From contig WGOC01000017.1 in assembly GCA_016124235.1 (NCBI GenBank), positions 290,967 to 354,966 of the forward strand: a DNA stretch of 64,000 nt, given 5' to 3'. The translations under genes were made by a program, and so were the position numbers. This DNA comes from a bacterium (lineage in GTDB: Bacteria; Verrucomicrobiota; Verrucomicrobiia; Limisphaerales; RI-55). Below, piece after piece: positions 1 to 33,317 of the stretch (its first letter is position 1; each line of letters begins with the position of its first letter). The notes beneath the pieces were generated by a model. That model was not told where the DNA came from. It was given only the letters and a program-made list of their open reading frames with translations, and searched no databases.

Positions 1-611
1 CGCCTTGCACGCCTTCAATCAAGACGGCGACCGTAGCCGGCGAGATGGCATCTTCGACCGCTTTCAAATCGTTGTACGGCACATGCCGGAAACCGGGCAT
101 AATCGGTTCGAAACCTTTTTTTACCTTGTCCTGACCGGTCGCAGCAATGCCGCCGAGCGTCCGACCGTGAAAGGAATTGGTCGCGGCGACGATCTCGAAC
201 CGGCCTTCGTCGTGACCGAACTTGCGGGCGAGTTTGTAAAGTCCTTCGTTCGCTTCCGCGCCGGAATTGCAGAAGAACACTTTGCCAGGCGCGATATGCT
301 CAACAATTTTTTTCGCGAGCCGACCCTGCGGCGCGTGGTAATACAAATTTGAGACATGCATCAACTCGCGCGATTGCTCAACGAGCGCCGCAGTGATTTC
401 CGGATTGGCGTGACCGAGCGCGCACACCGCGATGCCACCGCCGAGGTCGAGGTAACGCTTACCGCGAACGTCCCAGAGATAACTTCCCTGCCCGCGTTTG
501 AACGTCAGGTCAAATCGCCCGTAGCTGGGCACAACGAACTTGTTGAACAGCTCCTGGATTTGTTGCTGTTCGTTCTGAACGATCGGCGGTGGGGGGATGA
601 TCTCTTTCATC
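1..611 (-). CDS. argD: Class III aminotransferase, acetylornithine aminotransferase-like; C-terminal part lies beyond the window start; apparent 1-nt frameshift near position 540
   Basis: Minus-strand translation reads FVVPSYGRFDLTFKRGQGSYLWDVRGKRYLDLGGGIAVCALGHANPEI...LYYHAPQGRLAKKIVEHIAPGKVFFCNSGAEANEGLYKLARKFG...TNSFHGRTLGGIAATGQDKVKKGFEPIMPGFRHVPYND, continuous to position 1. A plausible N-terminus MKEIIPPPPIVQNEQQQIQELFNK starts at the ATG whose complement is 609-611, but it is in a different frame. The two frames meet at the A-run AACAAAG (complement of about 537-545). The track ORFs 5..352(+) and 356..661(+) are antisense to this gene. Confidence 0.75.
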
Positions 612-670
612 GCGCGGCGTGCATTGCTGGACAAGCAGCCGGCAAACTCAAGCAGAAATGACAGGTGGAA

Positions 671-1654
671 TTATTGTTTGTCTAGTGATCCAGGCACATA
701 TCCGACGCGCTCGTAAATATCCGTCAATGGCACTTCCGCCCCATCGCGGCGTTTGCTTTCGTCTGCCGCTTCCATGAAAGCAAAGATCTCGATCGTCTCC
801 GCGGCGGCGAACGGCACTTCGCGGGTCTGGAAGAACTTCACTGCTGCGACAACCAACGGCGCGTAACCGTCATACGCGCCGACATCCATCTCGCCTTTCT
901 CACCTTTGGCATGGCCGCTATAGCCCTTCGACTCGACGTACGTGCCGGTGCGCCCGCCGGACCACGTGCCGGTGACCACGAGTTCGCCGGCGGAATTGGT
1001 GCTGCGCTTCACGCTTTCGCATCCGGTGCCCATCACCGTGAACAATGATTCCACACCGTGGACGGCGTACCAGAACATGTCCGGATGACTTGGCTCAACG
1101 TGATACGGACTGCTCGTCTGCGCGCTTAATACCTTGCCGATGGCGCCACTGTGAACGGCCTGCGTGTTTTTTCCGTAACGCAAAGATGACGCACTGAAGA
1201 CGGGAACGTTGTGTTCTTTTGCCAGTTTAAAAATCGCAATCACGTCACCGAGCGAACCGGCCATCGGTTTGTCGATGTAGATTGGCTTTCCGGCCTGAAT
1301 AACCGGGATCGCCTGCCACAGATGCGGCCGTCCATCGACACTTTCCAGCATCACGGCATCAACGTGCTGGCACATTTCCTCAATCGTCGGATAGAGCGTC
1401 ACGCCGTACTTTTCGGTGAGCTCCTTGGTGTAGCCCTCGATTCTCGATGCGCTTGATTCGATGTCCGGACTGCCGCCCTTGAACGCCGCGACCACACGTG
1501 CGCCGGCAACGTGATCCTTTTGCGAGGCGTCGTTCAGTATCTTGGTAAAAGCGCTGACGTGCGAGGTATCGAGTCCGATCATGCCGATGCGCAGATCGGC
1601 CGCGGACGTCGTCAGCGTGAGAGCGAAGAACGCAGCAAGAATGTGTTTGGGCAT
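671..1654 (-). CDS. Gfo/Idh/MocA-family NAD(P)-dependent oxidoreductase with N-terminal signal peptide
   Basis: N-terminus MPKHILAAFFALTLTTSAADLRIGMIGLDTSH shows a signal peptide followed by a Rossmann GxGxxG-like motif. Overall it resembles the Gfo/Idh/MocA fold. ATG start at 1654. Confidence 0.7.
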   Translation of the reverse strand: MPKHILAAFFALTLTTSAADLRIGMIGLDTSHVSAFTKILNDASQKDHVAGARVVAAFKGGSPDIESSASRIEGYTKELTEKYGVTLYPTIEEMCQHVDAVMLESVDGRPHLWQAIPVIQAGKPIYIDKPMAGSLGDVIAIFKLAKEHNVPVFSASSLRYGKNTQAVHSGAIGKVLSAQTSSPYHVEPSHPDMFWYAVHGVESLFTVMGTGCESVKRSTNSAGELVVTGTWSGGRTGTYVESKGYSGHAKGEKGEMDVGAYDGYAPLVVAAVKFFQTREVPFAAAETIEIFAFMEAADESKRRDGAEVPLTDIYERVGYVPGSLDKQ

Positions 1655-1760
1655 GCGTCTGTTGTCGCTTTACGACGCACGCAAGGCAAGAGCAGAGGCT
1701 GCGTTGAACGCAGATTCAAATTGCTACCGAACAACGACTGTCGCCGGCGTGTGGACCAGC

Positions 1761-2555
1761 TCAGTGGCGTGGATCCGGCACGTCAGTGGGCAACCCCTCG
1801 GCCTCGATGGCCTCGGCAAATTTCCACTGGAAGAGACGGGTCTTGCCGATACCCCGAATTTCGTGAACCACCTCATTGAAATCGTTGGCCTTCAACGCGG
1901 CCTCGATTTCAGTCTTTTTATTCAACGGCAACGCATTGAAGGAAACGGTCACGCCGTTCGGGCGCGACAGGCTCTCCAAGCGAGCGGCCATATTAATTGT
2001 GCCACCACAGTAGTCCCGGTAGCGGAAGAAATTCGGATTAGTTTTGTCGCGGTAGAGCAACCGTTGAAAGGAACCGATCGCGATTCCAATTCCAACGTTG
2101 TATTTTTCCGGTGCGAAGTCCGCGGAGACTTCGTAGAAATTTTTCACGACCTCCTGGCCCACGCACGCCAGGCCGGTGATTTCGTCGACAGTGATGTCGG
2201 TGATCGAACCCTGTTCAGCAATCCAAATCAGCATCAAGCCATCCCCGAGTTCCTTGGCAAACGTAGTGTAACGATCCTTGGCATTAGCTTTCAGCGATTC
2301 AGCTGAGAGATGTTGGCTCAGAACGCGGCGGAAGCACGCCAGCAGGCTGATGGCGTAATCCGAGTTGGCGTCCATGTACGAGGAAAAGTCCCGAATGTCC
2401 GCAAACATGACGATCCCGTTGTGCAGCTCCGCCTTGATGTACTCGTCTTCGAGGGTCGGAAATTTGGAAACGGGCGCAGGTTTTTCCCCGTCGCCATTCA
2501 AATCCACCCGTGATTTTGCGGGCGGAACAAGGGTCGTCTGTCCGAAATTGCTCAT
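1761..2555 (-). CDS. Class III adenylate/guanylate cyclase catalytic-domain protein
   Basis: Motifs VMFADIRDFSSYMD and GGTINMAARLESLS are hallmarks of class III nucleotidyl cyclases. Confidence 0.65.
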   Translation of the reverse strand: MSNFGQTTLVPPAKSRVDLNGDGEKPAPVSKFPTLEDEYIKAELHNGIVMFADIRDFSSYMDANSDYAISLLACFRRVLSQHLSAESLKANAKDRYTTFAKELGDGLMLIWIAEQGSITDITVDEITGLACVGQEVVKNFYEVSADFAPEKYNVGIGIAIGSFQRLLYRDKTNPNFFRYRDYCGGTINMAARLESLSRPNGVTVSFNALPLNKKTEIEAALKANDFNEVVHEIRGIGKTRLFQWKFAEAIEAEGLPTDVPDPRH

Positions 2556-2650
2556 AAAATCGATCGCACCTGCAGAAAACTTAGCACGTGCAATGCCGAG
2601 ACACGGAATCGCATTCGGGTCGGCGGACTTTTCAGGTCGCCCCGGCGCAA

Positions 2651-3700
2651 TTAATTGCCCGAAACGTGATTGGTCGAGTTGGAGGAAAGTATCGGCAGCC
2701 GAGAAAGTTCGCCGGCCAGAACTCTGGTGAAATGCTCGGCCCCACTCGGATTTAGATGATACACGCTGGCGAAATAGCCGTTCGGCAATCGCACCGGCAA
2801 ATTCGTGAGCAAGTAATCGGCGTGCACTGATTGACTAAATTCACGGAGCAATTGGTCTCGACGGTCTTTGAACGAGGCGGCGATCTGTGAATCCGGCAAC
2901 GGTGTGATGCCGACCGCCAATTTGGGTCCCGCCGGGATGCGTGCACGAAGCTCTGCCGCTTCAAGTTTCACCGCGTCGGTAATAACATAGTGTGAATCCC
3001 GCGATTTATTCAATGGGTTGTAGGAACCGTACTCAACCATCGAACCGTTATGCTTCGGCAGATATCCACGCAAATGATATGCGTGCCCATAAAAGAGTGA
3101 AGCATTGCCGTAGAGCGTCATCGGAACCAAATGACCCGCTATCCGATCCTTCGCAATATCGAGCGCCAGCCATTCTTGCATTGGCGTCGCTTCACTACCG
3201 ATCGATCGACCGGCCAACAAATTGTGCCAAAGCCGCTGGTGGGGCGGACTCATGTTCGCGTTCTGCAATTCCTGCGGCGTGACCAGTAACACCACCAACT
3301 TCACCTGCCCTGGATGGTGTTTGATGAATTCGCCCGCGGCATCGCCATAGATGTCCATCCCGATGCCCATGAACATGCCCTGGTTGAGGACTTCGTTGCC
3401 GTCGGGCAGCAACCTGGTCAGCAACGCTGCCTGAACGTCGATCCCGCTGGTCGAATCACCGATGATGATCACGTTGGCGTCGGAGGGTGCGCGCGACATG
3501 TCATAACGTCGCCGCATGAGGACTTCGTCGGGACTCTCCACCGGCGCGGCAACGGGAAGCCAACCGGCCAGACTTAAGAAATGGAGCAACAAAACAATCG
3601 CCGCAACCCCAAGCAACGTCGGCGCAAATACCCGCACCAATTCACCAGCCTTGAATTGAAGTTCATGACTCGTCGCTGGTGTTGAAGGACGGCTGTTCAT
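2651..3700 (-). CDS. Membrane-anchored SGNH/AlgJ-AlgX/DltD-like protein, partner of the upstream MBOAT
   Basis: It has an N-terminal transmembrane helix and an IIIGDSTSG (GDS-like) motif. It lies directly downstream of the MBOAT gene on the same strand. The ATG at 3700 follows the TTG used by the ORF track. Confidence 0.5.
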   Translation of the reverse strand: MNSRPSTPATSHELQFKAGELVRVFAPTLLGVAAIVLLLHFLSLAGWLPVAAPVESPDEVLMRRRYDMSRAPSDANVIIIGDSTSGIDVQAALLTRLLPDGNEVLNQGMFMGIGMDIYGDAAGEFIKHHPGQVKLVVLLVTPQELQNANMSPPHQRLWHNLLAGRSIGSEATPMQEWLALDIAKDRIAGHLVPMTLYGNASLFYGHAYHLRGYLPKHNGSMVEYGSYNPLNKSRDSHYVITDAVKLEAAELRARIPAGPKLAVGITPLPDSQIAASFKDRRDQLLREFSQSVHADYLLTNLPVRLPNGYFASVYHLNPSGAEHFTRVLAGELSRLPILSSNSTNHVSGN

Positions 3701-3835
3701 CAATTTGCTCGGCCGGCATCACCAAACTTTAAGATGTGTGCACCGTTCCTTGCAGACCTTTCACGGTCGGCGATTTCGCTCATCCGCGCAATCGCATCTA
3801 CCACCAGTACCGAAATGGAATTCAACGTTCTCATT

Positions 3836-5290
3836 CTAGAATTGAAAATAGATGAACGCCGGGGCTTCGCGTTGCCAGAATAGAATGATCGAATAGATCA
3901 ACGCGGCCTGCAACAAACCGCGCGCCCATCGTGGAAGCCGCATCGCCGCCTCCAGGTCGCCCGTTCGGCATTGCCAAATTTGCATCGCCAGAAGCGGTAC
4001 TGAAAGCACGCACAATTCGCGGAACATCACGCCCGCCCAAACCGGCGGATTCCAATTCGCCAGCGAGGCCGTCAGCGTCAGAACTTGCTCGGCCGAGTTC
4101 GCGCGGAAAAGCAACCAGCCATACAGCGTGAACATCATCGTGAGCAGCCAAGCCAGCCAGCCCGGCATGGCGAATCGACTTCCATGATCGGAAAGCCGGG
4201 ACTCTTGCCCGCTTTCGCCCCGTGAAGCAGGCACCCGTTTGCCCACAATGTTTTCACTCCAGAAGCGGTTCACGATTAGACCAATCGCCTGCCAGAGTCC
4301 CCACGCCAGAAAGTTCCAGGCGGCGCCATGCCACAGGCCGCCTAGCAACATTACGATCATTAGGTTCAGATAAGTTCGGCCGGCCGCGATCCGGTTGCCG
4401 CCAAGCGGCAGGTAGAGGTAGTCCCGCAGCCAGGTGGAAAGGCTGATGTGCCAGCGCCGCCAGAAATCCTGCACGCTGGTCGCGAAATACGGCAGATTGA
4501 AATTCACCATCAGATCAAATCCTAGAATGCGCGCAAGGCCTCGAGCCATGTCCGTATAGCCGGAAAAATCACAGTAGATTTGGAACGCAAAGGCTGTGGT
4601 CGCAATCAACGTCTGGCTGGCCTCGGGTTCAATGATTCGAAAGACCGGATCCACGATGTGCGAAAAGCCATCAGCCAGAACCACTTTTTTGAACATGCCC
4701 CAAATGAACAGCCAGACTCCGGACTCCACCATGGAAAGCGTGATCGTCAGCTTGCGCGCCATTTGCGGCAAAAGATGCGCGGCGCGTTCAATGGGACCCG
4801 CCACCAGTTGCGGGAAGAACGACACGTACGCCATGAACTGCATCAAGTTTCGCGTCGCCGGAATCTGGCCCCGATACACATCAATCGTGTAGCTCAACGT
4901 CTGGAAGGTGTAAAACGAGATCCCCACCGGCAGCACAAATTGCAGGCCCGTCCATTGAACATCGACCCCGAATTGAGCGAGCAACAATCGCGTGCTTTCG
5001 CGAAAAAAATCGAAGTATTTGAAAAAGAACAGAACGCCGAGATTGGTGACCAGACTGACCAGCAGCAACGAACGCCGCGCTCGAAATCGATCCATCGCGA
5101 GCGCCACGAGATAGTCAACGACGCTCGAGAAAAGCAGCAGCGCCGTGAACCGGTAATCCCACCAAGCGTAAAAGATGTAGCTCGCGACGACAATCAACCC
5201 GTTGCGGGCAGCCAGACGATCACGGACCACATACCACGCCAGCAAAAAGACCCCGAAGAAGACCAGGAAGTCGGTTGAATTGAAGAGCAT
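3836..5290 (-). CDS. MBOAT-family membrane O-acyltransferase (AlgI/DltB-like)
   Basis: Multi-transmembrane protein whose N-terminus MLFNSTDFLVFFGVFLLAWYVV resembles AlgI. It carries the conserved His motif FWRRWHISLSTWLRDYLYLPLGGNR. Confidence 0.85.
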   Translation of the reverse strand: MLFNSTDFLVFFGVFLLAWYVVRDRLAARNGLIVVASYIFYAWWDYRFTALLLFSSVVDYLVALAMDRFRARRSLLLVSLVTNLGVLFFFKYFDFFRESTRLLLAQFGVDVQWTGLQFVLPVGISFYTFQTLSYTIDVYRGQIPATRNLMQFMAYVSFFPQLVAGPIERAAHLLPQMARKLTITLSMVESGVWLFIWGMFKKVVLADGFSHIVDPVFRIIEPEASQTLIATTAFAFQIYCDFSGYTDMARGLARILGFDLMVNFNLPYFATSVQDFWRRWHISLSTWLRDYLYLPLGGNRIAAGRTYLNLMIVMLLGGLWHGAAWNFLAWGLWQAIGLIVNRFWSENIVGKRVPASRGESGQESRLSDHGSRFAMPGWLAWLLTMMFTLYGWLLFRANSAEQVLTLTASLANWNPPVWAGVMFRELCVLSVPLLAMQIWQCRTGDLEAAMRLPRWARGLLQAALIYSIILFWQREAPAFIYFQF

Positions 5291-5365
5291 GGCGGCGCGT
5301 GGGAACGCGATGATTTAGCACCAATGCCACGCAGCCTTCAAGATTCTCAATTTAGCTGGGCGCAA

Positions 5366-6556
5366 CTATTGGAGTTCCTTGAGAACATCATCCAGTCCAC
5401 CGGCGACCGGTTCGATTTCGATCCGACCACCGGAATCATTTGATGCTCTTTCAGGTGTTTTGCGCGGTGCCTTGGGAACATCCGATCGCAACGGCGGGAG
5501 TTTCACCAGGCCTGGCCGTTCCTCGGAAACCTCAACTGCTGGCGAGCCCGCTTTCGGAACGTGCCAGTCACTCTTTTTGGCCATCCACGCTTGGTAACGG
5601 GCAAACGTCCACATCCCGGCTTCGGCGCCAGTCTCCATCACGGACGAAATCTTGAAAAAATCCCGGCTGCGGATGTGCGCTTTCACCGGATTGGTCGGGC
5701 GCAGAATTTCCAGCTCCGGCAACGTGATGTTGAGATCCGCGCGATAACGCAATCGTTGGCAGACGACTCCCACCAAACAATCGGCGACCTGCGCGGCAAT
5801 GCTGTTTTGAATGTCCGCCGGGAACGCACCGATCACCCGTTGCAGTGCCTCAACACAGCTCGACGAATGGACCGTGGCCAATACTAGGTGGCCCGTTTCC
5901 GCCGCGCTCAAGGTCAACCGCATCGTCTCGGGATCACGCATTTCGCCGACCATCAGCACATCCGGATCTTCACGCAGCGAATCCAACAGACCCTGCTCAA
6001 ACGATGGTGTGTCGCGGCCAACTTCGCGTTGACGGATGAAGGCGTTCTTCGGGCGAAAGACATATTCGATCGGGCTTTCCAGCGTGAGGACATGGCGCGC
6101 TTCCGCCTGATTCAATTCCTGGATCAACGCCGCCATCGTCGAGGATTTGCCGCTGCCCGTCGGCCCGCTCACCAGGATCAAACCGTGCGGCAATTGAACC
6201 AACTCCTTGAGGGAGGGATGCAGGTTCAGCGTCTGCAAGGTCGCTTCGAACGAACTCAGCAAACGAATGGCAAAACCAATTCCGCGCGATGATTGAAACA
6301 CGTTGACCCGGCAACGCACGCCCGCGATGCGTCGCGAACCATCGAACGAGCGTCGTTGCACAAACTCATTCCACGACTCCTCACCAATCAGACGGCGGGC
6401 AAGACCCAGCAGCAGTTGACCGTCAATCGGCGAGCCCTGTGTCAACAACCGACCCTGCACGCGCACGGCCGGCGGCAAGTCCGGCTCCAGATGAAGATCA
6501 CTCGCGCCCTGTGCGGCGGCGGCACTTACAAATTCTTCCAAAGTCTGCGTTTCCAT
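5366..6556 (-). CDS. pilT: Type IV pilus retraction ATPase PilT-family protein
   Basis: Walker A GPTGSGKSST and near-collinear similarity to PilT (ASDLHL, LVLATVHSSS, REDPDVLMVGEMRD). It has a roughly 60-aa C-terminal extension. Confidence 0.85.
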   Translation of the reverse strand: METQTLEEFVSAAAAQGASDLHLEPDLPPAVRVQGRLLTQGSPIDGQLLLGLARRLIGEESWNEFVQRRSFDGSRRIAGVRCRVNVFQSSRGIGFAIRLLSSFEATLQTLNLHPSLKELVQLPHGLILVSGPTGSGKSSTMAALIQELNQAEARHVLTLESPIEYVFRPKNAFIRQREVGRDTPSFEQGLLDSLREDPDVLMVGEMRDPETMRLTLSAAETGHLVLATVHSSSCVEALQRVIGAFPADIQNSIAAQVADCLVGVVCQRLRYRADLNITLPELEILRPTNPVKAHIRSRDFFKISSVMETGAEAGMWTFARYQAWMAKKSDWHVPKAGSPAVEVSEERPGLVKLPPLRSDVPKAPRKTPERASNDSGGRIEIEPVAGGLDDVLKELQ

Positions 6557-8158: not shown

Positions 8159-8362
8159 TTACGGCAGAAACTCTACCTTGAAAAAGCGATAGTCGTCGGC
8201 GCCCCAGCCTTCGATCACCACATCCAAAAAGGCACTGCCCGGCGTCACCAACACGTTCAATATCGGTTCCCAGGTTCCGAAGTCGGTCGTTGTGTACACC
8301 TGATAGCTCTCACCCGCCACGCCGTTCAGCGGGAAGTGAAACGCTCCGTCAACGACCCTCAC
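8159..8362 (-). CDS. Orphan 67-aa ORF, probably a gene remnant (beta-strand-rich C-terminal fragment)
   Basis: YQVYTTTDFGTWEPILNVLVTPGSAFLDVVIEGW...RFFKVEFLP looks like the tail of a larger secreted protein. It is isolated within a 1-kb noncoding stretch. Confidence 0.2.
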   Translation of the reverse strand: MRVVDGAFHFPLNGVAGESYQVYTTTDFGTWEPILNVLVTPGSAFLDVVIEGWGADDYRFFKVEFLP

Positions 8363-8532
8363 GTTACTGATGCTGGGGCGACCAAGATATCACGAAAACG
8401 CTTCGACTGACTGGTTGAACGCGCTCAGTCCGCCAATTCGTGCCGCCAGACGATCAGCACACATTCGATTTCAACTGCAACTCCGCGCTTGCACGGGCCG
8501 GGGACGTTCCCTACTTTGCCGCCCTGCTTTGG

Positions 8533-8619
8533 GCCGGTGTGGCGGAATTGGCAGACGCGCTAGACTCAAAATCTGGTGTCCTTGCGGACGTGGGGGTTCG
8601 AGCCCCTCCACCGGTACCA
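8533..8619 (+). tRNA. tRNA-Leu (anticodon CAA), type II with long variable arm and encoded CCA
   Basis: GCCGGTGTGGCGGAATTGGCAGACGCGCTAGACTCAAAATCTGGTGTCCTTGCGGACGTGGGGGTTCGAGCCCCTCCACCGGTACCA is near-collinear with E. coli tRNA-Leu. Acceptor stem is GCCGGTG/CACCGGT, anticodon loop is CT-CAA-AA, and the T-loop is GGTTCGAGCC. Confidence 0.9.
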
Positions 8620-8654
8620 ACCTGAATACCCCCTTCTTTTGTTGTGACTTGACC

Positions 8655-8700
8655 CATAAAATGGCCGCATCGGCCTCTTTATGCCCCCGGCCATTTTATG
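8655..8700. repeat. Perfect 13-bp inverted repeat (CATAAAATGGCCG ... CGGCCATTTTATG) with 20-nt loop, 36 bp downstream of tRNA-Leu
   Basis: Seen directly in the sequence. A second 7-bp inverted repeat (ACATTTC/GAAATGT, 8708-8735) follows. Confidence 0.5.
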
Positions 8701-9238
8701 CCTCGAGACATTTCGTCGCTATTTAAGAGAAATGTGGCCAAGAATCGCCAAACACTCGGCCAAGTTTTGGTTCAACTTCAATGGCATTCCCGATTTGGGT
8801 TGAAGCCGAATGAATTGGGGGCAGCAGAGACTGACGTGAAATCGAGGAGTTCAACTCGATTGGGTCAGAACGACATTAGTGCAGATTGGCCTCCGGGTCG
8901 AAGCATCGCGTGGTCAACTATCCCCGACCCGGCCCAGTTCCTCCCGGGCCCGGATCCATTCCTGCCTTGCCACCGCATCCCGCAAGTCGAGATAGCTCGG
9001 CAGTTCTGCCCGAACGCGGCCGGCGCTTGGATACTCAGCCCAGTTCCTCGACCGCAAGGCTCAAGGCCGAAGAGTCTCGTTCTCGGTGGAACTTGCTCGC
9101 ATGTTAAAGCCTCCAGCCCAATGGATGATTCGAAGTGGGGTATCTTCATTGTCGGAGTAGTGGCTCAGTAACAATAGATGTCATCAACTGGGGTGCTGGA
9201 TGACTGCCTCGCCCTCTGGGGCCGCGGCGTGATTCGGC

Positions 9239-10270
9239 TTGTACGTGCCTGTAGTCGGTGCCTCCTGGTATCGAAAGCTCGCCACGGCCGATTCAAATGT
9301 CATACTGCCGCCGGAGATGTCGCATCAGGCGGACAACGTTTCAGCCGGAACCCAGGTGGTTGCGCTGATCGAGGTGCGGGGCACCAACAATTCGTTGGTA
9401 CACCCGCGCGGTGCGGTCGGAGTGGTCACCCGCACACCGGCCGTCGCAGGGGAAAAGTTTCTCATACGATTCCCGGATGGCTTTGAAGGGACGTTCGAAC
9501 GTGATCAATTTGATGTGCTCAAGCATTTCAAAGATCGATTGGGACCGGTCTCCAATGGCACTCCGGCCTTTGATCTCGAATCCTGCATCATCTACCGCTG
9601 CGTGATCGGCTCGCGGGCCTATGGACTCGACACCGACGAATCGGACACCGACCGCCGAGGCGTTTACCTCGCGCCCGCCGATCTCCAGTGGTCGCTTTTT
9701 GGTGCGCCGGAACAATTTGAGGACCACGCCACGCAAAGTTGTTATTGGGAGCTGCAGAAATTTCTGACCATGGCCCTCAAGGCCAACCCGAACATTCTCG
9801 AATGTCTCTGGTCGCCGATGGTCGAGAAAGTCACCGACCTGGGAATGGAGCTTTTGACCATGCGCGAAGCGTTCTTGAGTCAGATGATTTTTCAGACGTT
9901 CAACGGTTACGCCGTGAGCCAGTTCAAGAAGATCGAGCAGGATTTGCGAAACTCGGGCCAGATCAAATGGAAACATGCAATGCACCTACTGCGTCTGCTG
10001 CTCACGGGCGCGGCCACATTGAGAACCGGAACTGTTCCGGTGCGCGTCGAGGCACACCGTGACCGCTTGCTCGCCGTCAAACGTGGCGAATTCGCATGGC
10101 CCGAAGTAGACGCCTGGCGCAGAGAACTCCACCGCGATTTCGAACGCGCCTTGGCCGAAACGAAATTGCCTGAACGCCCAGACTACGACGCGGCAAATAG
10201 GATCTTGATTAAAACGCGGCGAGAGATGGTAACAGCAAAAACGAACTACCACGATTACCCATGCGAATAG
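9239..10270 (+). CDS. Pol-beta superfamily nucleotidyltransferase (RlaP/PF10127-like), paralog 1, with N-terminal extension
   Basis: GSRAYGLDTDESDTDRRGVYLAP fits the GS-x(9-13)-DxD nucleotidyltransferase motif, and the C-terminal LPERPD motif is shared with paralog 2. The track start is TTG 9239, with the first ATG at 9317. The stop TAG 10268-10270 overlaps the start of the next gene. Confidence 0.7.
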   Translation: MYVPVVGASWYRKLATADSNVILPPEMSHQADNVSAGTQVVALIEVRGTNNSLVHPRGAVGVVTRTPAVAGEKFLIRFPDGFEGTFERDQFDVLKHFKDRLGPVSNGTPAFDLESCIIYRCVIGSRAYGLDTDESDTDRRGVYLAPADLQWSLFGAPEQFEDHATQSCYWELQKFLTMALKANPNILECLWSPMVEKVTDLGMELLTMREAFLSQMIFQTFNGYAVSQFKKIEQDLRNSGQIKWKHAMHLLRLLLTGAATLRTGTVPVRVEAHRDRLLAVKRGEFAWPEVDAWRRELHRDFERALAETKLPERPDYDAANRILIKTRREMVTAKTNYHDYPCE

Positions 10271-12207
10271 TCAACCTTAAGATAAACAGCTGGCGCAATT
10301 TCAGGGGTATTTCGTTGGAAATTCCAGAGGGCTCCAAACTGGTATGCTTGGTTGGAGAGAATGGGGCTGGGAAGAGCAATATTCTGGAATTAATTTCCGC
10401 GGCTGCGCATTACTTCGGCATTTCACCTGGCATCCAGATAGCGCGTGGAAATCCTTTCGATGAAGACCACGATGTTGAGATTGTTATCAAGTTTCCGGAA
10501 GCGAGAGAAATTCTGTTAGGCGAGGAATATTGCCAAACAATCATCGACAATTACCCGACATGGGACGGAACATTGCGCCTTGAGAGCTCAAGAGGAACAG
10601 GCACTCGAAACCAGACATTGGTGTATGCGGGCGGTATCGAAAATCCAGAAGTCGCTCGTTCGTTTGCTATAAGCAATCTTATCCCTCAAATCCGACAGAG
10701 AAAGGATACGTTTTACCTCTTTCTTGACGCAGACCGAGCCTACCCTCCGACTAAACTGCGCCGTGAACATTTTGCAGAAGGACTGATGCGTGCGTGGGAT
10801 TCGATCGAATGGCGTAAGAACAAGGCGTTTTTGCCGACACGCCAACTTTACGAAGAATGGATTAATTTTATGCTTTCGGTCGAAGGGCAGGAGGCAACTC
10901 AACATTTTCAAAAGCTTAGAAAAGCGCAAGAACTTTGCAATCCTGCACCGCTATTTACAGACCACTTCCTTTCATTCAAAAACTCTTTGAGAAAGGTGCT
11001 ACAACATTTGCAATTCGAGGGAGTTGATCAACAGCACCAAACAATCCTATTCGATACCGCTGCTGGGCCACTTAACTACAATCAATTGAGCGGCGGTGAA
11101 CGCGAGATCGCATTTCTGATCGGTCAAATCGAAAGATTTCAACTTCGAAGAGGCCTATTGCTAGTTGACGAACCTGAGTTGCATTTGAATTCCGACCTTA
11201 TACGTATTTGGATATCGTTCTTACGAGATACAGTCGAAGACGGGCAAACCTGGATCGCAACTCATTCGTTGGAGGCAGTCGAGGTCGCCGGCAGGATTTC
11301 AACATTTGTTTTGGAACGTTCGGAAACGAGACGAGTTGTTGATTGTGCCAGCTCGTTGGAAAATCGACCGATTCTGAACATTCTTGCCGGCGCCTTAGGC
11401 TCGCCCGCCTTTTCTCTCACAAGATTGCGGTTCGTATTCGTCGAGGGAGACCGCGGCAGAGACGAAAGAGAGCGCTTCCACAAACTTTGCCAGAATGCTC
11501 CGGAAAACCGATTCATGGAAGGAGGGGGCTGCAAAGAAGTGATCGGTAGAGTGAGAGTGGTGAGCGAACTAGCGGCTGAAACCGAAAGTCAGATACGTGT
11601 CGGAGGAATTCTCGATCGGGATTTCCGAACGCAAAGCCAGCTCGACGCGCTCACCAAAGACCTGCCAGTATTCGTTTTGCCGTGCCACGAAGTCGAAAAT
11701 TTATTCCTTCACCCAACTGGTTTGACACAACTTCAAAAAAGAATGGGAGGCACCGAATCTGTGGAGGGATTGCTTCAATTGGCCAGTGACCGGTTTGCAG
11801 GCGGTTGGATATTCCAGCATGCATACACCCAGACCAATGATCTGCCCGAACCGAGCAGAACTCTAAAAGACGGCTTTTGGAATTCTAGCTGGGCTGTTTT
11901 CTCACAGGACATCGAAAGCAAAGTAATGTCACTCATCGCGCTACAACCGGCACTTAATTCGAATGACCGAACGCGCCTCAAGACTGCCTTGGAAATAGCT
12001 GCAAGAATTTATAAAAGAGTCCGACTTGCTGACACCCTCTGGAAAGAATGTTTAGGCAAACAAACATTGGCCGAAATTTCCCGCAAGCTAGGCTTTCGAG
12101 GGCCAGAGATTGTCGAGGGATGCGTGCTGCAAATGTGGGCCAATGATGAAGTGCAAATTCCGGCCGAAGTGGAATCGGTTCGAGATTTTGTAAGCACGCT
12201 CCAATGA
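10261..12207 (+). CDS. OLD-family/PARIS (AriA-AriB fusion)-like protein: N-terminal ABC/AAA_15-21 ATPase plus C-terminal TOPRIM (DUF4435-like) nuclease
   Basis: Walker A GENGAGKSN; ABC signature-like LSGGEREIAF; Walker B LLLVDEPELHLNSD; H-loop IATHS. The C-terminus carries FVFVEGDRGRDE, ILDRDF and HEVENLF, which are TOPRIM E/DxD-type motifs. The gene is about 45% GC against about 60% for its flanks. Confidence 0.8.
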   Translation: MRIVNLKINSWRNFRGISLEIPEGSKLVCLVGENGAGKSNILELISAAAHYFGISPGIQIARGNPFDEDHDVEIVIKFPEAREILLGEEYCQTIIDNYPTWDGTLRLESSRGTGTRNQTLVYAGGIENPEVARSFAISNLIPQIRQRKDTFYLFLDADRAYPPTKLRREHFAEGLMRAWDSIEWRKNKAFLPTRQLYEEWINFMLSVEGQEATQHFQKLRKAQELCNPAPLFTDHFLSFKNSLRKVLQHLQFEGVDQQHQTILFDTAAGPLNYNQLSGGEREIAFLIGQIERFQLRRGLLLVDEPELHLNSDLIRIWISFLRDTVEDGQTWIATHSLEAVEVAGRISTFVLERSETRRVVDCASSLENRPILNILAGALGSPAFSLTRLRFVFVEGDRGRDERERFHKLCQNAPENRFMEGGGCKEVIGRVRVVSELAAETESQIRVGGILDRDFRTQSQLDALTKDLPVFVLPCHEVENLFLHPTGLTQLQKRMGGTESVEGLLQLASDRFAGGWIFQHAYTQTNDLPEPSRTLKDGFWNSSWAVFSQDIESKVMSLIALQPALNSNDRTRLKTALEIAARIYKRVRLADTLWKECLGKQTLAEISRKLGFRGPEIVEGCVLQMWANDEVQIPAEVESVRDFVSTLQ

Positions 12208-12311
12208 TCGACTCCAGTCTCGACCGCATCGTTGCGACGCAGCCTTACGCGCTGCTCTTTGCCACGATCAGCGCCTCGTATTTGACGGGAGGTTTATCAC
12301 CGGACGATTGA
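12204..12311 (+). pseudogene. Degenerate 5' remnant of an RlaP-like nucleotidyltransferase gene; its ATG overlaps the upstream TGA stop (ATGA)
   Basis: It encodes MIDSSLDRIVATQPYALLFATISASYLTGGLSPDD*, which aligns with the start of paralog 2 (MTIDTRLHSIVAAQPYPLLFATVSGAHLYGFPSPDSD). The GS...DxD catalytic residues are lost and it ends after 35 codons. Confidence 0.55.
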
Positions 12312-12355
12312 GCTGCAAGCTGGACGGCCTCACTCCGGCAGCATAACTTTTTGCC

Positions 12356-12571
12356 ATGCTTGACTGGAGCCAGTGCGAACAGGTGGAACGTCACCCGGAC
12401 GTCGTGAGTGGCGCGTGGGTGTTCAAGGGCACGCGCGTTCCGGTGGCGGCGTTTTTTGAAAACTTGGAAGAGGGTGCCTCCGTCGAGGATTCCCTCGAAT
12501 GGTTTCCCGGCGTTTCCCGTGAACAGGTCGTCGCAGTACTTTCCCACGCGGAACACCGTCTCGTGGCGTGA
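12356..12571 (+). CDS. DUF433-family small protein (putative antitoxin)
   Basis: GAWVFKGTRVPV is the DUF433 signature. It is 71 aa and its stop overlaps the start of the next gene (GTGA). Confidence 0.7.
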   Translation: MLDWSQCEQVERHPDVVSGAWVFKGTRVPVAAFFENLEEGASVEDSLEWFPGVSREQVVAVLSHAEHRLVA

Positions 12572-12885
12572 GAATTCTTTTCGATCAGGGCGTGCTGGTG
12601 CCGCTCCGGAGGGAGCTTCCCGAGCACGGCATTTCCACTGCGTTTGAACAGAGATGGTCGGCCTTGAGCAACGGCCTGTTGCTAAGTTCGGCCGAGGAGG
12701 CCGGCTTCGAATCGATGATCACCACCGACAAGAACCTGAGGTATCAGCAAAATCTGGCGGATCGTCGAGTTGCCATCCTGGTACTGCCGACAACGCGCTG
12801 GCCGGTGATCGAGCGACACACGCTGGTTGTAAAAGAGGCGTTGAAAAACCTCCGCTCGGGCGAGTATCGCGAACTATCCTGGTGA
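12568..12885 (+). CDS. DUF5615-family PIN-like protein (putative toxin of the DUF433/DUF5615 pair)
   Basis: MRILFDQGVLVPLRRELPEHGI with an acidic TTDKNL core, 105 aa, GTG start. Together with DUF433 this is the canonical pairing. Confidence 0.65.
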   Translation: MRILFDQGVLVPLRRELPEHGISTAFEQRWSALSNGLLLSSAEEAGFESMITTDKNLRYQQNLADRRVAILVLPTTRWPVIERHTLVVKEALKNLRSGEYRELSW

Positions 12886-12887
12886 TC

Positions 12888-13667
12888 ATGACCATCGACA
12901 CACGCCTTCACAGCATCGTTGCTGCGCAGCCGTATCCGCTGCTGTTTGCCACCGTCAGCGGCGCGCACCTGTATGGTTTTCCGTCCCCGGACTCTGATTT
13001 TGATTTGCGTGGCGCGCATGTGTTGCCGCTCGAAAAGGTCGTCGGTCTGGAGGTGAAGAATGAGACCCTAGAGGACAGTCGGATTATTGATGGTCTGGAC
13101 ATGGACATTGTGAGCCATGACGTGCGGAAGTTCTTTGGCCTGCTCCTGAAGAAGAACGGCTATGTGCTCGAACAACTGTTTTCGCCGCTCATCGTTCACA
13201 CCACGCCTGAGCACGAGGAGTTAAAGGCCCTTGCGGGCGGCCACAAAAAGCAGACGGGCGTAATCACTAAACATCATGCCCATCACTACTTCGGATTCGC
13301 GGAAACGCAGTGGAATTTGTTTTTGAAGGAGTCGCCGCGGCGGGTGAAGCCGCTGCTCTATGTTTATCGTGTCCTGCTCACCGGCGTTCACTTGATGCGC
13401 ACTGGGGTCATCGAAGCCAACCTCGTGACGTTGAATGGGGACTTCCAGCTGCCATACATCGCCGAGTTGATTGAGCGCAAAACGACCGGCGAGAACACGA
13501 CCTTGTCCGACGCCGATCTGTCGTTTCATGAGTCGGAATACCAGCGGCTGCGAGGTCAGTTGCAATCCGCCCACGAAGCCAGCCAACTTCCCGAGCGACC
13601 GGACGAGTCGACGCGGAATGGCTTAAACGATTTGCTCGTACGGATACGTTTGAGTTCCTGTCGCTAG
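12888..13667 (+). CDS. Pol-beta superfamily nucleotidyltransferase (RlaP/PF10127-like), paralog 2
   Basis: MTIDTRLHSIVAAQPYPLLFATVSGAHLYGFPSPDSDFDLRGAHV carries GS-x10-DxD, plus the C-terminal LPERPD motif. The ATG at 12888 lies 3 nt after the DUF5615 stop. The track ORF from 12654 includes a spurious leader. Confidence 0.75.
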   Translation: MTIDTRLHSIVAAQPYPLLFATVSGAHLYGFPSPDSDFDLRGAHVLPLEKVVGLEVKNETLEDSRIIDGLDMDIVSHDVRKFFGLLLKKNGYVLEQLFSPLIVHTTPEHEELKALAGGHKKQTGVITKHHAHHYFGFAETQWNLFLKESPRRVKPLLYVYRVLLTGVHLMRTGVIEANLVTLNGDFQLPYIAELIERKTTGENTTLSDADLSFHESEYQRLRGQLQSAHEASQLPERPDESTRNGLNDLLVRIRLSSCR

Positions 13668-13740
13668 CGGAGGCCAATTCACAAAACCGGAGGGAAAAGG
13701 CGGGCTTCTCATCCCGGATGATTTGGACCAGATTGGGTCC

Positions 13741-32905: not shown

Positions 32906-33317
32906 GTTTATCTCCGATATGGCGACACATCGCGACGGTTTATCGCCGCGCGATGAGACGCACGCTTTGTGATTGGGGAGAACGTGGGTGCACCGCCCAA
33001 GCGGAGCCCTAGAGGATCGCCCTTCCAGATGCCGACGAGGTTAGCTGACGGGCTCGATCCTGAAAGTGACCGCGACGAACACCTGTTCCGTCGTTCGCCC
33101 CGCCCCGGTTTCCCGGAGAGTGGGTCCCCCGCGCCGGCTCGCAGGAAGGCGAACCGGCTTAGGCTGCTTACTAACGCGGAGAATTTAGATCACATCTGTA
33201 AGGAAAGTCAAAATGGGCCAGTGTAAGTGGTTCAACTGGAGCGGAATAAATCTCTGTTGATCCTCCTATGAATTCGCTTCCCGCGGCTGCGCGAACCGGC
33301 GCCACGTTGGAGCAAGA

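Follow-up and report, generated by a model that had tools for sequence, protein, structure and literature searches.

In this study, we report the computational characterisation of a gene of 648 codons, low in guanine plus cytosine (GC), that lies at 10261..12207 in a stretch of 64,000 nucleotides (nt) of the verrucomicrobial contig WGOC01000017.1 (assembly GCA_016124235.1), the whole of which is referred to here as the window. The gene stands between two genes for nucleotidyltransferases of the RlaP type, RlaP1 and RlaP2, and its product is best classified as a single-chain PARIS of divergent sequence, a fusion of AriA and AriB, for which the term OLD-like is right only in the broad sense of an ATPase joined to a TOPRIM domain. 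We consider it likely that this PARIS abortive-infection protein is one cargo of a recurrent slot that Verrucomicrobiota-like bacteria have at the translationally coupled junction of RlaP1 and RlaP2, and not a native partner of the pair. The features of the locus were as follows, with lengths of proteins in amino acids (aa) and ORF standing for open reading frame.

9317..10270, plus strand: RlaP1, Pol-beta-type nucleotidyltransferase of PF10127, left frame of the slot (Pfam E = 9.9e-42, 143.8 bits, cut-off 23)

10261..10270, plus strand: left junction, a 10-nt overlap of the RlaP1 end (..CCA TGC GAA TAG) with the cargo ATG, as read from the sequence

10261..12207, plus strand: gene for the single-chain PARIS-type protein (AriA-AriB fusion), the low-GC cargo (ATG start, 648-aa ORF)

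10261..11376, plus strand: ABC-type ATPase half, aa 1-372, with Walker A, signature, Walker B and H-loop motifs

11428..12204, plus strand: TOPRIM/DUF4435 nuclease half with helical C-terminal region, aa 390-648, with invariant acidic residues

12204..12311, plus strand: remnant of 35 codons, a degenerate copy of the start of RlaP2, MIDSSLDRIVATQPYALLFATISASYLTGGLSPDD followed by a stop codon (DNA alignment, tblastn and nhmmer)

12356..12571, plus strand: gene for a 71-aa DUF433 protein, candidate antitoxin-like, first gene of a second small cassette (Pfam DUF433, E = 4.4e-14)

12568..12885, plus strand: 105-aa ORF, beginning in the last 4 nt of the DUF433 gene and stopping 2 nt short of the RlaP2 ATG (ORF and spacing)

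12888..13667, plus strand: RlaP2, intact PF10127 nucleotidyltransferase of 259 aa, right frame of the slot (Pfam E = 2.2e-54, 185.2 bits, cut-off 23)

The Pol-beta motifs were intact in the translations of both framing genes (IGSRAYGL..SDTD in RlaP1 and SGAHLYGF..DSDFD in RlaP2), which are paralogues with 23% identity over 249 aa, and the RlaP1 start at 9317 (MSHQADNV) agreed with homologues aligning from residue 1. The name RlaP was reportedly given by Burroughs and Aravind in 2016. RlaP adds 1-2 nucleoside monophosphates to the 3'-OH ends of RNA with a preference for damaged RNA, and has been proposed to help in the repair of ribotoxin-damaged tRNAs (PMC12776372). Relatives of RlaP1 were found by the thousands with identities of 78-85%, most of them carrying the label Verrucomicrobiota or Pedosphaera, and the 5' 107 nt of RlaP2 were 86-89% identical to the RlaP2 alleles of other loci. 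For the 648-aa protein the closest homologue had 49% identity, with none higher in 15 billion proteins, showing that the frame is highly conserved whereas the gene in its middle is an orphan. The named nearest relatives, at 44-49% identity, belonged to Chloroflexota, Gammaproteobacteria, Thiodiazotropha, Immundisolibacter and Mycobacterium and none to the Planctomycetes-Verrucomicrobia-Chlamydiae (PVC) group, a point that a preliminary description of this DNA made from the sequence alone had proposed to check.

Searches of Pfam with the 648-aa protein gave 62.9 bits for AAA_21, 51.2 bits for AAA_15 and, over aa 391-492, 31.0 bits for DUF4435 (PF14491; Pfam cut-off 27). The published rule for the detection of PARIS takes at least 32 bits with AAA_15 or at least 27 bits with AAA_21, plus at least 27 bits with DUF4435, in the same protein or in an adjacent gene (PMC9122126), and both the ATPase and the DUF4435 scores of the protein lie above these thresholds. 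Fusions of PARIS into a single gene are recognised in PMC9122126 and PMC11464382. The top PADLOC models were those of AriAB (PDLC02981, E = 4.8e-28; PDLC02982, E = 2e-21), whereas the models of Old (PDLC02358) and GajA covered only the P-loop at aa 1-50. No match to an OLD-type TOPRIM profile was obtained, and a profile search of the PDB gave 6p74 over aa 283-371 of the ATPase only. In structural comparison the nuclease half was closest to AriB, the fold of which it shares, and the ATPase half matched AriA. The 'OLD-family ATPase-TOPRIM' of the preliminary description was therefore correct in that one chain holds both an ATPase and a TOPRIM domain in an OLD-like fold, but classical OLD it is not, as the Old and GajA profiles match the P-loop only and the AriAB models match best.

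The ATPase half carried a Walker A motif GENGAGKS (K38 at 10372-10374), LSGGE at aa 276-280, a Walker B motif LLLVDEPE (D303/E304) and an H-loop histidine, H335. It is joined through a flexible linker at about aa 375-390 to the nuclease half, whose acidic TOPRIM residues were E395 (11443-11445), E402, D452 (11614-11616), D454 and the cluster H476-E477-x-E479-N480. In an alignment of 28 homologues, the invariant or near-invariant positions comprised the Walker A core (G32, N34, G35, G37, K38, S39), LSGGE, VDEPE and H335, and likewise E395-G396, E402, D452, D454 and H476-E477-x-E479-N480. The catalytic residues picked out earlier in FVEGD (E395) and DRD (D452/D454) were thus borne out by the family alignment. 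AriA function requires K39 and E393, and the ATPase motifs of the 648-aa protein are predicted to be catalytically competent. The family comprised more than 600 homologues of uniform length (about 645 aa), falling into 152 representative clusters (50% clustering, E <= 1e-30) that mostly aligned end to end. Sequence searches of the PDB using the protein, the family profile or a profile of the C-terminal part only returned ABC ATPases alone, with AriA and AriB unreached and the nuclease half unmatched; the relationship to AriA and AriB is therefore a remote one, though consistent across profiles and fold. A search of NCBIfam reached no curated family with any of the five proteins of the locus, and a scan of a genome collection with P-loop and DEPELHLN patterns, which were too generic, gave 3 spurious loci only.

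It was also considered whether the protein could be a DNA-targeting nuclease of the OLD/Gabija kind (the type of class 1 OLD, GajA and the retron Eco8 effector) that nicks or cleaves phage or host DNA. The chain of ATPase and TOPRIM domains is common ground with such enzymes, and the profile and structural matches described above are to AriAB; we regard this alternative as quite improbable. For the 648-aa protein as a divergent fused PARIS, architecture, intact motifs and an AriB-like fold are established, and from PARIS we infer the remaining mechanism. PARIS is characterised by trigger-dependent activation (e.g. by Ocr), cleavage of tRNA anticodon stem-loops and growth arrest. By analogy, the AriA-like ATPase half would sense a phage-encoded trigger, upon which the AriB-like TOPRIM half would cut the anticodon stem-loops of host tRNAs by two-metal catalysis, producing 3'-OH and 5'-phosphate ends and arresting translation. 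In E. coli PARIS, AriB is freed from the AriA hexamer on activation (PMC11464382), and cleavage by AriB leaves 3'-OH and 5'-phosphate ends (PMC12409363). As the covalent fusion excludes such a release step, the fused halves would have to be gated by a conformational or oligomeric change, with no free AriB being released.

At the nucleotide level, the ATG of the PARIS gene (10261-10263) lies inside the final codons of RlaP1, the TAG of which is at 10268-10270, and its TGA (12205-12207) shares the ATGA at 12204-12207 with the ATG (12204-12206) of the 35-codon ORF; the coordinates and both junction overlaps were as previously described. The GC content of the ORF was 48.1% and that of the 64-kb window 57.6%, so that the dip claimed earlier is real and coincides with the ORF, although the figures then given (about 45% against about 60%) were too extreme. 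GC at third codon positions (GC3) was 47.8%, compared with 65-68% in the adjoining genes. The ORF was the lowest-GC stretch of 1947 bp in the window (z = -4.4, with 0.24% of sliding windows equally low), and a two-change-point fit of GC placed boundaries at 10195 and 12080, with 47.6% inside, 57% outside and a log-likelihood gain of 20.6. Codon usage was compared with a reference pooled from the 31 other ORFs of at least 250 aa in the window. An index similar to the codon adaptation index was 0.575 for the PARIS gene against 0.761 +/- 0.038 (z = -4.9), its GC3 deviated from the other ORFs with z = -4.6, and among the 32 ORFs of at least 250 aa it was the sole outlier in codon usage. Both the GC minimum of the 64 kb and the only codon-usage outlier thus fell on the gene singled out in the preliminary description.

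For the study of the surrounding frame, 80 metagenomic loci with RlaP1 relatives (given below by L-numbers) and the contexts of three close homologues were used. RlaP1 and RlaP2 were located in each locus by tblastn, and 49 intervals from RlaP1 to RlaP2 were resolved. Relatives of RlaP1 at 73-85% identity were accompanied by the same RlaP2 partner, the two genes being either directly coupled or placed on both sides of a cargo. Nine of the 49 intervals were empty, the aligned segments being 7-29 nt apart: the stop of RlaP1 and the first codon of RlaP2 overlapped as GTGA in L025, L041, L058 and L062 and as ATGATTGA in L055 and L060, while spacers of 1 nt and 23 nt were present in L036 and L042, respectively. 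The other 40 were occupied by 174-6563 nt of cargo, and after removal of near-duplicates 34 occupied loci were left, which held 29 cargo architectures and 38 protein clusters. In every one of these (34/34) the GC content of the cargo was below that of RlaP1, with a mean deficit of 4.7 points. Cargo ORFs of at least 100 aa were co-oriented with the frame in 46 of 54 cases, the cargo started between -58 and +42 nt from the RlaP1 stop and ended between -11 and +55 nt from the RlaP2 start, and overlaps of 4 nt were frequent at the junctions, occurring on both sides in L022, L045 and L096. Low GC, codon-level overlaps and a conserved frame are therefore the general rule at the RlaP slot. A search of the literature found no earlier account of tandem paralogous RlaP genes framing variable cargo, a mention in Burroughs and Aravind 2016 being possible.

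In a minority of the loci, the slot forms part of a longer operon of the order RtcR/Ro60-RtcB-RlaP1-[X]-RlaP2-PolyA_pol-RNaseT-like, with RtcB upstream in 7/50 and PolyA_pol downstream in 7/25. At the window locus RtcB, Ro60 and PolyA_pol were not found, and the RlaP pair is an orphan one. Two observations on individual loci were made in passing. At L036, five tRNA genes (Ile, Phe, Thr, His and SeC; 119-2344) lie a few kb upstream of an RtcB-RlaP1-RlaP2 operon with an empty slot, a layout that recalls reports in which tRNA gene arrays are connected with translational stress and RtcB. The L022 contig has two full RlaP1-[cargo]-RlaP2 units (2-5744 and 8225-13739) that lie 7.4 kb apart and carry different cargo proteins of 1381 aa and 1266 aa, from which it follows that the frame itself is duplicable, or may be mobile.

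The cargo included known immune effectors as well as RNA-repair enzymes. A single-chain SIR2-APAZ-pAgo protein of 1050 aa (PADLOC pAgo, 1222 bits) occupied the slot of L016 (7958-11110), which itself lies in a full RtcR-Ro60-RtcB...PolyA_pol RNA-repair operon, and a DRT UG5-nitrilase reverse transcriptase of 1001 aa (922 bits, PADLOC) occupied that of L030 (6203-9208). ThsB-like TIR proteins were the cargo in five loci, and further conflict-related cargo consisted of NACHT/STAND and other large NTPases, a CHAT protease and a WD40-pentapeptide protein. Hen1-Pnkp was likewise the cargo of five loci, in one case together with an RNA ligase and in one with an Mrr-like nuclease; other enzymes were a Thg1-like protein with a P-loop kinase, an R2K ATP-grasp protein, a radical-SAM protein and an M28 peptidase. 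Many of the cargo proteins had no annotation. Those without a Pfam match were either recurrent (about 327 aa in L017/L037/L088, about 210 aa in L028/L043/L095 and 478 aa in L023/L024) or seen in a single locus (1266 aa in L022, 965 aa in L087, 446 aa in L076 and 451 aa in L082); the 1266-aa cargo of L022, the only one of them that was run through PADLOC, gave no match. Given the company of known cargoes in which they occur, they are candidates for new defence or RNA-repair proteins. None of the three contexts of AriAB homologues contained RlaP: one homologue stood alone, one lay by NERD and HNH genes and one was located within a type I restriction-modification (R-M) operon. A conserved partnership of RlaP with this PARIS subfamily was thereby ruled out.

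These results support cassette exchange, or the acquisition of a foreign effector gene, inside a pre-existing operon. The horizontal origin proposed in the preliminary description is upheld by an RlaP pair that occurs empty or around 29 cargo architectures, always of lower GC and tightly packed. Its two nucleotidyltransferase neighbours proved to be RNA-repair RlaP proteins that frame a hotspot and are unlikely partners of the nuclease. The 'preserved translational coupling' holds for the overlaps as such, but on the downstream side the PARIS gene is coupled only to a dead remnant of 35 codons.

Several observations weigh against the view of the PARIS gene as a foreign cargo of the slot. Among about 50 loci, a PARIS gene was present in the RlaP slot of this organism only. 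Homologues of AriAB in Chloroflexota, Gammaproteobacteria and a third lineage had a GC content that tracks the host, yet was 4-8 points under that of their flanks; the GC deficit is thus partly a trait of the AriAB family, and the dip is no clock and alone no proof of recent acquisition. In the adjacent RlaP2 remnant the otherwise near-invariant ISGAHLYGF motif is degraded, so the remnant is not young, and its decay argues that the PARIS gene is no very recent arrival. The order of the two insertions at the locus and the recombination mechanism, both set out below, we infer from the layout. A scan for sigma-70-like promoters between the RlaP1 and RlaP2 coding regions found none (0 against 2.5 expected), being blind to promoters of other than the sigma-70 kind. 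As regards the protein, E395, E402, D452, D454 and E477/E479 were invariant in 28 and in 13 homologues, in the order and spacing expected, and at the level of sequence are consistent with E26, D30, D88, E90 and E122 of AriB (PMC11464382). Further, the fusion cannot use the release mechanism of E. coli PARIS, and both its trigger and its substrate, which may be tRNA, other RNA or DNA, are assigned by analogy.

Some of the same points would suit a gene that is an old resident of the locus, long inherited vertically and low in GC by its nature: the homologues in three other lineages that lie 4-8 GC points below their flanks, the heavy decay of the adjacent RlaP2 remnant, which makes the junction not a young one, and the 34/34 non-redundant cargoes below RlaP1 in GC, which suggest a general AT bias of such genes. 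However, an old resident would be expected neither to be missing from the slots of about 50 related loci, some of which are empty, nor to lack any relative above 49% identity in 15 billion proteins where RlaP1 has thousands at about 80%. Moreover, at 9.5 GC points and about 20 GC3 points, the deficit of the 648-aa gene was the largest seen. We find long vertical residence a quite improbable account, and acquisition as a cargo of the slot the likely one.

The nucleotidyltransferase remnant at 12204 that had been noticed earlier is real, and represents a decayed 5' end of RlaP2. The first 33-35 residues of RlaP2 align with the 35-codon ORF at about 70-78% DNA identity (78% mean column identity), tblastn gave 61% aa identity over aa 3-35 (E = 4e-8), and nhmmer with a profile of the RlaP2 5' end detected the remnant with E = 2e-13. 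A search for direct repeats at the window locus with default stringency found nothing, as the remnant is too diverged for it. Remnants of the RlaP2 5' end were also present between successive cargoes in L012, L014/15 (two copies), L049, L066/70/71 and L076. The likeliest history of the locus would have two steps on the evidence of its layout. The PARIS gene would first have entered where RlaP1 ends and RlaP2 begins, with overlaps on both sides, and the two-gene DUF433 cassette would later have inserted some 100 nt into RlaP2 and duplicated, or supplied anew, the 5' end of that gene, so that the ATGA at the junction of the PARIS stop and the remnant may be a fossil of an earlier direct PARIS-RlaP2 junction. 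The second step could have occurred by single-crossover integration of a circle carrying an RlaP2 5' segment, or by homology-facilitated illegitimate recombination.

Arrays with repeated RlaP2 5' segments (three cassettes in L014/15 and two in the window), together with the ORF-precise and promoter-less nature of the cassettes, are also what an integron-like, site-specific system would leave, in which the 5' end of RlaP2 serves as the attachment site and the recombinase is encoded elsewhere. The homology of the remnants ended, however, at nt 53, 73, 79, 81, 83, 110, 120 or 126, and eight different endpoints argue against a single site-specific crossover point. Neither at the window locus nor in the inserts examined was an integrase found, an IS21 in L012 being the exception to the absence of integrases and transposases from the cargo, and most occupied loci had no remnant at all. 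A site-specific cassette system is therefore very unlikely in our view, and the conserved RlaP flanks were probably where the cassettes were exchanged, by homologous or illegitimate recombination and without a site-specific integrase.

Several further scars were observed. In L053, L054, L061 and L063, RlaP2 is simply truncated, with only its first 53 nt present 12 nt after the end of RlaP1. No intact RlaP2 was found within 10 kb in L053 and L061, and the L054 and L063 contigs were short, with less than 1 kb downstream. The genes downstream of the truncated RlaP2 in these four loci were mostly on the opposite strand, and the RlaP frame appears to be broken in this lineage. A similar duplicative insertion was seen at the 5' end of RlaP1 in L066, L071, L078 and L082, which suggests a second insertion site there; in L066, L071 and L082, where the upstream region was readable, the duplication reaches upstream by 60 nt or more. 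The direct repeat of L082, about 460 nt long with 86-93% identity (2715-3181 and 4922-5390), surrounds a 2.2-kb insert and extends from a tRNA-like 3' half (..GGTTCAAATCCTGCTGG.CCCACCA, uncalled by ARAGORN) through the first ~125 nt of RlaP1. This tRNA-like segment might belong to a Y-RNA-like element. This insert, the only duplicative one inspected for an integrase, carried alpha/beta-hydrolase and PIN_3 genes and no integrase. With those two genes and no tRNA called by ARAGORN, an origin of the L082 insert as a tRNA-targeting integrase element was ruled out.

A comparable scar was noted outside the RlaP frame. In a gammaproteobacterial metagenome-assembled genome (GCA_040217095.1; L004/L005, 4562-11143), an AriAB homologue with 46% identity stands in a type I R-M operon, after hsdS and before hsdM. 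The order in L005 is hsdS, the AriAB-like gene, an ORF of 59 aa, a two-gene module ending in Fic and an intact hsdM; the first 37 residues of the 59-aa ORF are 89% identical to the start of hsdM, giving the same scar layout as in the window.

We also considered the slot as a functional module, in which RlaP1 and RlaP2 work with the inserted cargo by acting on the 3'-OH ends made by the nuclease, either repairing tRNA to limit self-damage or adding untemplated nucleotides that would block phage ligases. The 3'-OH products of AriB (PMC12409363) are the ends that RlaP extends (PMC12776372), the cargo is co-oriented in 46/54 cases and often translationally coupled to both RlaP genes, RNA-repair cargo is present (Hen1-Pnkp, RNA ligase, Thg1-like protein with kinase), and in some relatives the frame lies in an RtcR/Ro60/RtcB...PolyA_pol operon. 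Against such a module stand the 9/49 empty intervals, mostly with RlaP1 and RlaP2 directly coupled, which show that the pair works without cargo. Most cargo types, moreover, are not RNases (pAgo-SIR2, TIR, DRT, STAND, CHAT, M28 peptidase), these types and PARIS occur elsewhere without RlaP, and RlaP1 is far more conserved than any cargo. A working partnership is thus unlikely, and the same degree of scepticism applies to a broader proposal in which the junction would be a 'damage-and-repair' expression slot, where Verrucomicrobiota-like bacteria have interchangeable effectors and repair enzymes co-expressed with RlaP in an RNA-repair operon and turned over in an integron-like but integrase-free manner, by recombination in the ultra-conserved RlaP2 5' end. 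If that proposal were true, RlaP would process the RNA products of the effectors, and could either rescue the 3'-OH tRNA halves made by PARIS or tail them irreversibly.

Between the RlaP1 and RlaP2 coding regions no internal terminator-like hairpin was found by scanning. Taken with the promoter scan described above, this and the gene overlaps suggest that the PARIS block is probably co-transcribed with the RlaP genes as one transcript. The DUF433 gene was likewise called on Logan contigs. Its companion, the 105-aa ORF, had no match in Pfam or NCBIfam, and from the usual pairing of DUF433 may be a PIN-like/DUF5615-type toxin; the two genes look like a small candidate cassette of the toxin-antitoxin type. 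The region that they fill (12356-12885, plus strand) has the RlaP2 remnant before it and the intact RlaP2 after it, and its GC content of about 58% is host-like, unlike that of the PARIS gene. Further upstream, a tRNA-Leu(CAA) gene is present at 8533-8619 on the plus strand (Rfam 51.3 bits, and ARAGORN), about 700 nt before RlaP1, with a GC-rich hairpin downstream of it at 8663-8675. The intervening ~700 nt held only ORFs without a Pfam match and no trace of RtcB or Ro60, and an RtcB/Ro60 operon remnant upstream in the window was ruled out, there being no match even at E below 5. A c-di-AMP riboswitch of the ydaO/yuaA class (RF00379, 56.7 bits, full-length model) at 33015-33175 on the minus strand is unrelated to the PARIS locus.

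The gene described here adds a divergent member of the fused PARIS class, with at most 49% identity to anything public, from a phylum little studied for defence systems. With many slot cargoes being without annotation, the RlaP1/RlaP2 pair may serve as a simple bait for new defence genes. The slot is also a natural test of any wiring between tRNA-cleaving immunity and RNA repair, as AriB makes and RlaP extends 3'-OH ends, and offers a tractable example of promoter-less cassette swapping in operons, with a remnant scar that recurs in a type I R-M operon. At least 29 cargo architectures were present in the sample, and with the exception of the IS21 in L012 no mobile-element machinery was visible at the inserts.

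In comparison with known systems, the 648-aa protein shares with PARIS (E. coli B185, AriA plus AriB, with fused AriAB also known) the domain content, the best PADLOC model, the fold and the conserved motifs. It differs in that the halves are fused and give no pairwise sequence match to the solved proteins, and in that its gene lies in a chromosomal pair of RNA-repair genes, not in a P4 satellite or prophage hotspot. With respect to OLD proteins (P2 Old, class 1 of Thermus scotoductus, class 2 of Burkholderia), GajA and the retron Eco8 effector, the Old and GajA profiles match only the P-loop, and the C-terminal domain here, a DUF4435, carries a long helical extension like that of AriB; DNA is the substrate of OLD and GajA, while AriB acts on tRNA (PMC12409363).

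By analogy with PARIS, the locus also resembles those of PrrC and RloC, in that the gene for a putative translation-targeting suicide nuclease is inserted co-oriented in a conserved operon. Type I R-M operons harbour anticodon nucleases and other defence genes, examples being PrrC, of the prr locus, and RloC, and EcoprrI masks PrrC. The likeness extends to the 46%-identical homologue, which itself lies between hsdS and hsdM and has left a 5' remnant of the downstream gene. In the window, however, the frame consists of RNA-repair nucleotidyltransferases and not of R-M subunits, and no regulation between frame and cargo of the EcoprrI-PrrC sort is known.

The RtcB/Ro60/RlaP operons (PMC12776372) are related in that both neighbours of the PARIS gene are PF10127 proteins and the same pair occurs in such operons in some relatives, whereas the window has the orphan RlaP pair only. 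With the P2/P4 hotspots (Rousset et al. 2022, PMC9122126) and core-genome defence islands, the RlaP slot has in common conserved flanks, variable defence cargo and empty alleles, and the cargo shared with them includes PARIS, TIR, SIR2, reverse-transcriptase and NLR-like proteins. Unlike those hotspots, the slot spans a few nt within an operon, at a junction of translational coupling; its cargo is ORF-precise, mostly a single gene, promoter-less, co-oriented and without a phage or satellite backbone; and it mixes immune effectors with RNA-repair enzymes and leaves duplicated 5' fragments of the downstream gene. The fused-PARIS class itself was known, and is represented here by a divergent member; what distinguishes its setting from known defence hotspots is an ORF-precise, promoter-less slot between RlaP genes, with mixed cargo and 5'-remnant scars.

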